Below are positions 37,908-40,625 of a stretch of DNA of 42,995 nt, piece by piece; the stretch's first letter is position 1, and each line of letters opens with the position of its first letter. Both the position numbers and the translations under genes were made by a program. Under the pieces are notes generated by a model that made no database searches, had not been told where the DNA came from, and was given only the letters and a program-made list of their open reading frames with translations. This stretch comes from a virus (taxonomy: Duplodnaviria; Heunggongvirae; Uroviricota; Caudoviricetes): positions 1 to 42,995 of IMG/VR virus record IMGVR_UViG_2874920711_000002. One strand, given 5' to 3'.

Positions 37908-38201
37908 ATGAAAGTTCAGGCCGTTGGTTTATTCTGGTTTCGCGATGCGATTCAGTATCATGAGCTCAAAAATATTTTTACTGATGCTGATGTGCTCTCC
38001 GACAGTTACACCGAGTGGAAACACGACGCTGAAAAATTGATTAAGCGTGTCGAAAGAAGCGGGCAACGAGTTATTAAAGTTGAAGCGGATACAGCCGAGT
38101 TCATCGCCTGGTGCACAAGCGAAGGCATTGGAATCAATGCCGAAGGTAGAATGCAGTTCGCATCCTTTAAGGCTTACCAACAACTTCTCAGCGAACGCTA
38201 G
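37908..38201 (+). CDS. Hypothetical protein
   Basis: 97-aa ORF with strong AAAGGAGG Shine-Dalgarno 6 nt upstream; hydrophilic composition; the stop codon is formed at the junction with the IS5-family element. Confidence 0.4.
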   Translation: MKVQAVGLFWFRDAIQYHELKNIFTDADVLSDSYTEWKHDAEKLIKRVERSGQRVIKVEADTAEFIAWCTSEGIGINAEGRMQFASFKAYQQLLSER

Positions 38202-39115
38202 GCTGTGTCCCTTAATTACGTAAGCGTTGATAAAAGAGTCGGATGCAGCCCAGTTTCACCATCGCCAGGTAATTTCTCGCCGTTTTGTCGTAACGCGTGG
38301 CGATGCGGCGATATTCTTTCAGCCGCCCAAAGCACCGTTCAACGATATTACGATTGCAGTACGCATCACGATCAAGCTGTGCACGTCCATCCGATGCCAT
38401 TTTCTCATTTGACTTTCGGGGATTACTGCCTTTATACCGTTATTTTTCAGCTCGTTGCGCAATGCGCGCCCTGAATACGCTTTATCAGCCAGTACCGCAT
38501 GTCCACGGCGTTTCATGCTGCCGTTCTGACGCTGAACGCCAATCCCGTCCAGAAGTCGTTGCGCGAACTGGCTTTCATGAGCTTGTCCGGGGCTTAGCAC
38601 GATATTTAACGGGAGGCCACTTCCGTCTGTTGCCAGATGGATTTTGGTGCCAAAACCGCCGCGAGAGCGACCCAGCCCATTATCTCCGTCGATATCGGGA
38701 TGTTTTTTTGAGCACCGGCGGCACATTTCAGCGCCCGGATATTACTGCCATCCAGCGCGGTGGCAGACCAGTCAATAAAGCCGTTTGCATCAAGTAGCGA
38801 AAGCAACCTGTTGAAAATAATATTAATCACGCCTGACTTTGACCATCGGTTAAAGCGGTTATAAACAGTTTTCCATGACCCATATCGTTCGGGTAAATCG
38901 CGCCATGGTGCACCGGAACATAACACCCAGAACATGCCATTGATGATTTTACGGTGCTCAGCCCATGGGCGTCCGGCCCGTGGTGTGGCGGGTTCAGGAG
39001 GTAACAGGGGCTTGATGATGGTCCATGCCTCATCGGGAAGGTCGTAGCGAGCCATAGTTCAATATGTTGTGTAAACAGACAGTTACTATAGCTCAGATGA
39101 TTAAGGGACACAGCC
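38201..39115 (-). mobile_element. IS5-family insertion sequence (IS427/IS1031-like), about 915 bp
   Basis: Terminal inverted repeats GGCTGTGTCCCTTAAT (38201-38216) and its reverse complement (39100-39115), each flanked by TA; encloses transposase ORFs. Confidence 0.7.
38212..39055 (-). CDS. IS5-family DDE transposase, in three frames
   Basis: ORFs 38606-39055 (MARYDLPDEAWTIIKPLLPP…WRDLPERYG…), 38319-38726 and 38212-38400 (…RIATRYDKTARNYLAMVKL…) together make one transposase of about 280 aa. Confidence 0.7.
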
Positions 39116-39188
39116 TAATGTGATTGGGGCAATCGAAATTGTTGCCCCATCGTATTTAATAGTTATTTTTTCGCTCATATCACCACCA

Positions 39189-39398
39189 TCACTTCTCATC
39201 CTCTGTGTGCGCTAAGCTTGGATGTGTATATGGAATGTTCGGATCCAGATGGCAGAGAATGGCAACATCCTCCGGAACGCCCCGCGTTTTCCACTTTCCA
39301 ACTCCCTGACTACCACGAGGCTTTCCTTTCTTTGGGAACCTGCGGCCAATAGCGGCATTGGTTTTAAATTGAGTTTTTAATATTTCATAAAGGGTCAT
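39189..39398 (-). CDS. Putative Cro-like regulator
   Basis: 69-aa ORF divergent from cI at the head of the minus-strand early operon; contains a …GKWKTRGVPEDVA… motif reminiscent of Cro/YdaS-type HTH proteins; possibly frameshifted. Confidence 0.35.
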   Translation of the reverse strand: MTLYEILKTQFKTNAAIGRRFPKKGKPRGSQGVGKWKTRGVPEDVAILCHLDPNIPYTHPSLAHTEDEK

Positions 39399-39509
39399 TC
39401 TTTAGCCTCACACCGGATACTCTGTTATCCAAGAATGTTAAACATGAGAATCCAAAGTATCAAGACATTCTGTTACTTTAGTATCAGCAGCCATGAAAGG
39501 AGAAGAAAA
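39399..39509. promoter_or_regulatory. Divergent immunity promoter/operator region
   Basis: cI-cro intergenic region with repeated AGTATCA motifs (39456, 39480), a GGATAC…GTTATCC palindrome (39415-39430) and ATGTTAAACAT. Confidence 0.45.
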
Positions 39510-40166
39510 ATGAAATCTTTAGGTGAACGCCTCATCAACGCACGACAAAAAGCTGGGTTAACGCAAGATGCGTTGGCTAAAAAAGCTGGGGTCACCAGAG
39601 TTGCAATCAGTAAAGCCGAGCAAGGTCTTACAAAAAGTTTCAACGGTGACACGCTTTTTAAAGTCGCAGCGGCACTGCAGTGTTCACCGCAGTGGCTTCA
39701 GAACGGAGATGAAAAAGGTAAGTATTGGGAAAATAATGTTAAGAGCTGTCCCCAGAGAGACACAGCACACTCTTACCCTGTAATTAACTGGGTTCAGGCA
39801 GGATTATTCGCAACTGCAGGTGATGACTACAACATGTATGATCAGGATAATTGGAGGCATTCTGTAAAATACGCTGGTGAGAGGGGCTTCTGGCTGGAAG
39901 TACACGGAGACTCAATGACTTCGCCTATAGGAATAACATTTCCTGAAGGAATGTCGATCCTTGTCAATCCAGATAAAGAAGTTTTTTCAGGGTGTTACGT
40001 CATCGCCAGAAAAAAATCCACCAATGAAGCAACATTCAAAAAATATATTTCTGAAATGGGGAAGGCGTTTCTAAAGCCCCTTAATCCACAATATCCCATC
40101 ATAGAAATGGACAATGATTGCGAAATAGTAGGTGTTGTGGTTGATGCCAGGTGGGATATTTTCTGA
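39510..40166 (+). CDS. cI: CI-type repressor (N-terminal HTH, C-terminal LexA/S24 autopeptidase)
   Basis: MKSLGERLINARQKAGLTQDALAKKAGVTRVAISKAEQG… then …GDSMTSPIGITFPEGMSILVNPDKEV…FKKYISEMGKAFLKPLNPQYPIIEMDNDCEIVGVVVDARW…, closely parallel to the lambda CI C-terminal domain; GAAAGGAG ribosome-binding site. Confidence 0.85.
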   Translation: MKSLGERLINARQKAGLTQDALAKKAGVTRVAISKAEQGLTKSFNGDTLFKVAAALQCSPQWLQNGDEKGKYWENNVKSCPQRDTAHSYPVINWVQAGLFATAGDDYNMYDQDNWRHSVKYAGERGFWLEVHGDSMTSPIGITFPEGMSILVNPDKEVFSGCYVIARKKSTNEATFKKYISEMGKAFLKPLNPQYPIIEMDNDCEIVGVVVDARWDIF

Positions 40167-40188
40167 CCAGATACAAAAAGAAACCAAA

Positions 40189-40220
40189 GTATCAAAAGCT
40201 ACTTGCCATGCTTTGATACC
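40189..40220. promoter_or_regulatory. OL-like inverted repeat downstream of cI
   Basis: AGTATCAAAAGC-tacttgccat-GCTTTGATACC, carrying the same GTATCA core as the upstream operator region. Confidence 0.35.
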
Positions 40221-40262
40221 TTAGTTACCATGAAACAAAGTTCGTAACTGGGGTATCATCTC

Positions 40263-40625
40263 ATGATCAATAAAGCTACAACTCTTGACTGTCTCGAAGA
40301 ACTGAAAAACCTCGGCAGCCTCATTACACTAATAGCAAAAGCAACACCAGATGCTACGCTCTCTAGCGATATAGAGTCATGCGCAGGACTGGCATGGGAT
40401 ATGACAAATAGCATATCCAGAAAGCTATCGTCAGCAATGCTTTTACAGAACAAAAATTCTGCAATCAACAACCGTCTTCGCACCCAACGCGAAGCCTGCG
40501 GCTTAACAACCGCCGAACTCGCCAGGCTGCTCGATCTCGATGAAGAAGTCATCATCCAGTGGGAGAGCGGAGAGTATGAACCAACTATCAGTATGCTTAT
40601 CCCACTGGCAAATATTCTTGGCTGA
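40263..40625 (+). CDS. Hypothetical protein with C-terminal XRE-type HTH
   Basis: 120 aa; C-terminal …NNRLRTQREACGLTTAELARLLDLDEEVIIQWESGEYEPTISMLIPLANILG is an XRE-family HTH; N-terminal 70 aa unknown; the stop falls where HTH domains usually continue. Confidence 0.5.
   Translation: MINKATTLDCLEELKNLGSLITLIAKATPDATLSSDIESCAGLAWDMTNSISRKLSSAMLLQNKNSAINNRLRTQREACGLTTAELARLLDLDEEVIIQWESGEYEPTISMLIPLANILG

Follow-up and report, generated by a model that had tools for sequence, protein, structure and literature searches.

Six 14-bp candidate operators of the CI repressor around the cI gene of a phiP27-like Escherichia coli prophage

The cI gene of a phiP27-like E. coli prophage is flanked on both sides by short DNA repeats with a GTATCA core. 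Are these repeats the operators of the CI repressor, and what is the unit that a repressor would recognize? An earlier note on this DNA proposed that they form OR and OL operator sets for a LexA-type CI. We analyzed the whole stretch of 42,995 nucleotides (the window) and compared its immunity region with those of relatives. Judging from the sequence comparisons, six 14-bp sites, grouped into an OR and an OL set, are quite probably the operators of the CI of this prophage in a lambda-style immunity switch.

The prophage and its immunity genes

The window is of the phiP27-like E. coli prophage type. The region shares 95% DNA identity with phage phiP27 and 84% with the Stx1a/Stx2a phage group, and chromosomal copies of it occur in 331 of 5426 complete E. 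coli genomes (~6%). In phiP27, as in lambdoid phages, the immunity module has the integrase side on one flank and the replication side on the other. Other hosts of this immunity type are Salmonella, Klebsiella/Raoultella, Phytobacter, Xenorhabdus and Providencia. Three genes border the repeats.

39189-39398, minus strand: Cro-like gene, 69 aa, an ORF divergent from cI; phrog_4749, function not known
39510-40166, plus strand: cI repressor gene, 218 aa, with an N-terminal HTH_3 and a C-terminal S24 autopeptidase domain
40263-40625, plus strand: first gene after PL, an HTH_3 protein; phrog_4739, and phrog_4836, a 'CII-like regulator'

Between them lie the two intergenic regions considered throughout, the cro-cI region (39399-39509, 111 bp) and the post-cI region (40167-40262, 96 bp), with a total given as 208 bp. 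The latter follows the TGA stop codon of cI at 40164-40166.

The reading of CI as a LexA-type repressor is borne out. CI is a lambda CI homologue in which Pfam recognizes HTH_3 (1.4e-14) and Peptidase_S24 (1e-22), and the self-cleavage residues are in place. Residues 12-215 align with the lambda repressor structure PDB 3bdn (E 2.5e-33), with the QAG, GDSMT and FKK segments aligned, so that the cleavage pair Ala97-Gly98 and the catalytic pair Ser135/Lys177 match those of lambda CI; A97, G98, S135 and K177 are invariant among the relatives. The N-terminal domain is closest to 434 Cro (E 1.1e-9) and P22 c2 (E 3.7e-9). Among sequenced phages, a DNA-binding domain more than 90% identical to that of this CI is found only in phiP27 and the Stx1a/Stx2a yecE-type phages, the next nearest being less than 47% identical. 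Database records of phiP27 and the Stx phages annotate the gene as 'putative lambda repressor' or 'phage repressor protein CI'.

Where the earlier note placed cro there is a small ORF divergent from cI, a putative Cro. The 69-aa protein has no sequence match in Pfam, NCBIfam or the PDB. Its AlphaFold model has a pLDDT of 90, and the best fold matches, Xfaso-1 Cro and YdaS, are weak (TM 0.5-0.6, E about 0.5). The gene adjoins the CI gene in every relative examined. 'Cro' is used here as a label taken from position, size and this weak fold resemblance, and the protein may be called Cro-like in that sense.

The window copy differs from phiP27 and the Stx phages by an insertion sequence (IS) beside cro and by a nonsense codon in the PL-proximal gene. 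Located 73 bp downstream of the cro-like gene, the IS is 915 bp long (38201-39115). Its terminal inverted repeats are GGCTGTGTCCCTTAAT.../...ATTAAGGGACACAGCC, TA is duplicated, and a transposase is encoded in overlapping frames (ORFs within 38212-39055, minus strand). The element is missing from the E. coli O121 locus (L164, 99.8% identical) and from phiP27. Between the cro-like gene and a convergent 97-aa gene (37908-38201), a terminator-like hairpin TGGGGCAATCGAAATTGTTGCCCCA at 39125-39149 may end one or both of these transcripts. The nonsense codon, TGA at 40623-40625, stands where phiP27, the Stx phages and locus L004 have TGC (Cys121), so that the HTH domain loses its end. Among relatives the product of the PL-proximal gene differs in length: it has 215 aa, including two HTH_3-like stretches, in the Stx phages (L002 4575-5222, L003 4571-5221), 166-167 aa in L004 and L164, 138 aa in phiP27 and, owing to the nonsense codon, 120 aa in the window. 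Near the end of the window an IS30-like transposase ORF (42183-42995), which runs past the window end, comes immediately after an IS3-family-like orfA (41859-42182); from the translations alone, 41859-42995 looks like one IS inserted into another. Because the TGA in the PL-proximal gene occurs together with IS elements, the copy suggests a decaying prophage.

A 14-bp unit behind the GTATCA motif

The motifs described for the cro-cI region are present as claimed. AGTATCA occurs twice (39456-39462 and 39480-39486), and the palindrome GGATAC...GTTATCC has its arms at 39415-39420 and 39424-39430. The long inverted repeat after the cI stop also exists, with arms AGTATCAAAAGC (40188-40199) and GCTTTGATACC (40210-40220), although it is imperfect and contains one bulge (AAAA vs TTT). 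A further GGTATCA at 40252-40258 lies just past the end of the stretch treated in the earlier note.

Wherever GTATC occurs in the two regions, it forms the better-matching half of a 14-bp element. GTATC is thus most likely, on the alignment of these elements, the well-conserved half of a 14-bp pseudo-palindromic site with the consensus GWWAC-N4-GTATC. The proposed GTATCA core is a real motif, but its unit would be this 14-bp pseudo-dyad, the bare GTATCA word being insufficient. Six such sites are found, each with one perfect GTATC half and one half with one or two mismatches.

39416-39429, minus strand: OR site a (cro-proximal), GATAA CAGA GTATC, GATACTCTGTTATC; the GGATAC...GTTATCC palindrome
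39448-39461, plus strand: OR site b, GAATC CAAA GTATC, GAATCCAAAGTATC; overlaps the predicted PR -35 hexamer and spacer
39472-39485, plus strand: OR site c (cI-proximal), GTTAC TTTA GTATC, GTTACTTTAGTATC; overlaps a candidate PRM-like -10
40180-40193, plus strand: OL site a, GAAAC CAAA GTATC, GAAACCAAAGTATC; left arm of the inverted repeat
40215-40228, minus strand: OL site b, GTAAC TAAG GTATC, GATACCTTAGTTAC; right arm of the inverted repeat
40244-40257, plus strand: OL site c, GTAAC TGGG GTATC, GTAACTGGGGTATC; overlaps the ribosome-binding site of the next gene; past the coordinates of the earlier note

Two relatives carry perfect versions of the unit. Where the window has GATACTCTGTTATC, Stx2_12E129 has the perfect dyad GATACTTAAGTATC, and where the window has GAAACCAAAGTATC, locus L068, whose CI is 86% identical, has the perfect dyad GATACTTTAGTATC. 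We adopted the 14-bp unit because of these perfect dyads and rejected two longer ones, AAAGTA-N14-TACTTT (39454-39479) and GTATCA-N19-TGATAC (40189-40219), whose half-site centres are ~25 bp apart and whose spacings disagree between OR and OL. One stretch of similarity is longer than the 14-bp site: a 17-nt block AGAA(T/A)CCAAAGTATCAA is shared at 16 of 17 positions between 39447-39463 (OR site b) and 40179-40195 (OL site a).

Short words recur in A+T-rich intergenic DNA, and over the whole window GTATCA itself has 43 copies on both strands, about twice the number expected under a uniform model (about 21), so chance or composition might be thought to account for the motifs. Five of the 43 copies, however, fall within the 208 intergenic bp on the two sides of cI. 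When all words were scanned, GTATC was the top enriched 5-mer there (7 copies, Bonferroni 2e-4) and GTATCA the top enriched 6-mer (5 copies, Bonferroni 2.4e-3). When both regions were shuffled with dinucleotides preserved, the observed count was never reached by this word in 5000 shuffles, and any word at all equalled it in 34 of 5000. The sites are moreover conserved across genera while their flanks diverge. We give an effect of chance or composition a next to negligible probability.

The pattern GWWWM-N4-GTATC matches six times in the window against 0.82 expected, and all six matches lie in the two intergenic regions; the even density throughout the prophage that would have spoken against operators is not what is seen. 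This pattern was drawn up after the sites had been seen, a circularity that is lessened, not removed, by a leave-one-out test, the unbiased word scan and the comparison across genera. With a position weight matrix built by leaving one site out, the omitted site ranked between 2nd and 12th among 85,964 positions. The six sites score 17.5-21.7 bits and all other positions of the window at most 12.2 bits, and further operators elsewhere in the prophage were rejected on this score. Near-dyads one mismatch from a perfect dyad, at 6752, 8153 and 33452, were also set aside, being located within long ORFs or, with a centre rich in G+C, at a gene junction. As for the host SOS regulator, no LexA box (CTGT-N8-ACAG, with at most one mismatch) matched in 39399-39509 or 40167-40262.

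Conservation of the sites and covariation with the CI helix

The relatives compared were 80 viral contigs and 80 species-representative genome loci encoding CI relatives, together with three further locus sets retrieved via the Cro-like protein. The CI recognition helix TRVAISKAE(Q/L)G is kept in relatives from seven enterobacterial genera. At loci with the helix xTRVAISKAE(Q/L)G from E. coli, Salmonella, Phytobacter, Raoultella, Xenorhabdus and Providencia, the three sites upstream of cI are kept at CI identities down to 55%, and two or three sites occur downstream of cI around TTGxCA-17-TACxxT, one of them in the spacer. The start-to-start spacing in OR is 32 and 24 bp, identical in the tabulated E. 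coli, Phytobacter, Raoultella and Xenorhabdus loci, and site c begins 24 bp after site b in all relatives. In OL the spacing is 34-35 bp and then 24-29 bp.

The sites stand out from the DNA around them. When the OR regions of eight diverged relatives were aligned with the sites as anchors, 29 of the 42 columns within sites were invariant, against 5 of the 52 outside (Fisher p 1.6e-9). phiP27 and the Stx1a/Stx2a 'yecE' phages carry all six sites; compared with them the GTATC cores are invariant, and much of the DNA between the cores is altered. The segment CCAAAGTATCAA of OR site b is near-invariant across genera, and OL site b is near-invariant in phiP27-group relatives. OL site c is more restricted, being found in the phiP27 group, L068, L114 and L167 and missing in L084 and L085.

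The half-site follows the recognition helix of CI. All 72 loci with the helix xTRVAISKAE(Q/L)G have two or three strict sites within 220 nt upstream of cI, whereas loci with other CI helices have none or, rarely, one. The helix SRMAISKIEMG of the Serratia-type CI is accompanied by TAAAC-N4-GTTTA dyads that occupy the same positions in both OR and OL, and the helix SRVTISKIELG by (G/A)TTTC half-sites, likewise in the same positions. Such covariation is expected if CI reads the sites.

Could another adjoining regulator, the Cro-like 69-aa protein or the PL-proximal HTH protein, be the main reader of these sites in place of CI? Both are small putative DNA-binding proteins that flank the sites, and in lambda Cro and CI bind the same operators, a precedent by which binding of the Cro-like protein could accompany that of CI. 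The Cro-like putative helix SQGVGKWKxRG, however, is identical in loci with GTATC, GTTTC and GTTTA half-sites, while the half-site changes with the helix of CI. As for the PL-proximal gene, it carries the nonsense mutation in the window with the sites intact, and in the Salmonella locus L165 it is replaced by unrelated small genes with the GTATC sites still present. We consider it quite unlikely that either protein rather than CI mainly reads the sites. By analogy with lambda, the Cro-like protein may well bind them also, although it would not explain the GTATC specificity, because its putative helix is the same with three different half-sites. CI is the reader that we prefer.

The phrog_4749 proteins in the Cro position (those of the window, L070, L114, L165, L167 and L169) are 65-96% identical to one another despite differing CI helices and half-sites; their putative recognition helix, in contrast to that of CI, does not vary with the operator.

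The predicted promoters and the inverted repeat after cI

The sites overlap two sigma-70-like promoters predicted by a consensus scan.

39435-39463, minus strand: predicted PR promoter for cro; -35 TTGATA 39463-39458, 17-bp spacer, -10 TAACAT 39440-39435
40203-40231, plus strand: predicted PL promoter; -35 TTGCCA 40203-40208, 17-bp spacer, -10 TACCAT 40226-40231

The scan gave six matches in the region, a number not far above the shuffle mean of 3.8. The -35/17/-10 layout of PR recurs among the relatives; that of PL, TTGxCA-17-TACxxT with an operator inside the spacer, is conserved over a range of hosts from E. coli to Providencia and Xenorhabdus. OR site a would cover about +1 to +13 of the predicted PR transcript. 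OL site a starts 13 nt past the cI stop, just upstream of the PL -35 hexamer; OL site b is in the PL spacer and abuts the -10 hexamer; OL site c would span about +7 to +20 of the predicted PL transcript. The proposal of an OL set directly after cI with a PL-type promoter thus gains support from three sites around TTGCCA-17-TACCAT, an arrangement conserved across genera. For PRM no candidate passed the consensus scan. Our best guess for its -10 is TAGTAT at 39479-39484, inside OR site c, a hexamer that is degraded in the Stx phages (TTGTAT, TGGTAT).

The inverted repeat at 40188-40220 directly follows the cI stop and folds at -10.3 kcal/mol (z -2.5), and a true terminator occupies this position in more distant relatives. 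It might then be an RNA hairpin that terminates the cI transcript rather than a pair of protein-binding sites. Several observations speak against such a hairpin. The repeat is without a U-run, its stem is low in G+C, it was not reported by a terminator scan, and it has no Rfam match. Folding of the corresponding sequence from phiP27 and the Stx phages yields only about -5 kcal/mol (z -0.8 to -1.2), since outside GTATCA the arms (AAAAGC, GCTTT) are neither conserved nor compensated. The conserved -35 hexamer TTGCCA occupies the 'loop'. Since the extra pairing is lineage-specific, we judge a terminator to be very unlikely. The long inverted repeat of the earlier note is better read as two separate operator sites, OL a and OL b, flanking the PL -35, with an extended pairing peculiar to the lineage.

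A clear intrinsic terminator, a GC hairpin with a T-run, is present between the cI stop and the first OL site in L084, L085, L114, L165 and L167. In the phiP27 group and L068 the gap carries no terminator and measures 13-21 nt and 5 nt, respectively (40167-40179 in the window). In these phages cI transcripts should then run into OL and PL.

The proposed switch and its relation to known systems

All the above, namely the footprint, the fixed spacing, the covariation with the helix and the overlap with promoters, argues for the OR and OL sets as operators of CI. A CI with a 434/P22-type helix-turn-helix domain and a lambda-CI-type domain for oligomerisation and self-cleavage would place a dimer on each site; binding to both halves is assumed, because the second half of every window site has one or two mismatches. 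By occupying OR site a, over +1, and OR site b, over the -35 hexamer, CI would block PR and thereby cro. At OL sites a, b and c, which lie upstream of the -35, in the spacer and at ~+7 to +20, it would block PL. Occupancy of OR site c would limit the promoter of cI itself. On SOS induction, RecA-stimulated self-cleavage of CI would free PR and PL, a release proposed because Ala-Gly, Ser and Lys are all conserved. We infer the physical binding, the exact promoters, the start sites, the cooperativity and the division of the sites into those that repress and those that might activate.

This would be an ordinary switch of a well-known kind, with newly mapped sites. It resembles that of lambda in a CI homologous over nearly its full length with the cleavage and catalytic residues kept, in three sites between cI and a small divergent gene in the cro position and three at the leftward promoter, in sites with one well-conserved and one weaker half, and in the overlap of sites with the -35, spacer and +1 regions of promoters. 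The differences from lambda are several. The sites are 14 bp long here and 17 bp in lambda, with the half-site GTATC in place of TATCACCGC. The OR spacing of 32 and 24 bp compares with 24 and 23 bp in lambda. Since OL starts 13 nt after the cI stop, with neither rexAB nor a terminator between, the OL-OR distance is ~770 bp instead of 2.4 kb. An N gene is absent: what comes first after PL is a gene for an HTH protein. cI has a leader with a Shine-Dalgarno sequence.

The N-terminal domain of CI links the system to 434 and P22 through its matches to 434 Cro and P22 c2. The operators of 434 are also 14 bp long, and the operator centre is important in 434; the sites described here share the conserved outer bases and the A/T-rich centre. 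The half-site differs (GTATC vs ACAA in 434), the helix here is TRVAISKAEQG, and the C-terminal domain is closer to the one in lambda CI. Also close are phiP27 and the Stx1a/Stx2a 'yecE' phages, which have the same immunity module at the DNA identities given above and the same six sites. Their records contain no annotated operator features, and word and sequence searches found no description of these operators in the literature covered.

Two more speculative readings concern the terminator between cI and OL, which the phiP27 group would have lost, and the Cro-position protein, which would read something other than the CI half-sites. We regard these readings as unlikely. If the terminator was lost, CI bound at OL might serve as the roadblock at which the cI message ends; alternatively, lysogens might express the PL-proximal HTH regulator along with cI. 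Because the Cro-position proteins are 65-96% identical across three specificities and their helix does not track the half-site, they may read something else, possibly the conserved A/T centre or the weaker halves of the sites. If true, this would break the rule seen in lambda, where the operators of CI are also those of Cro.

The value of our CI operator assignment is practical rather than conceptual, and the understanding of such switches is unchanged by it. It provides an operator map, comprising six sites, a consensus and the predicted PR and PL, for an immunity type without a characterised member, and the sites can serve as a marker of the immunity group. As this type is carried by phiP27 (Stx2e) and by Stx1a/Stx2a phages, the map can aid in predicting superinfection immunity groups and the SOS inducibility of Shiga-toxin prophages.
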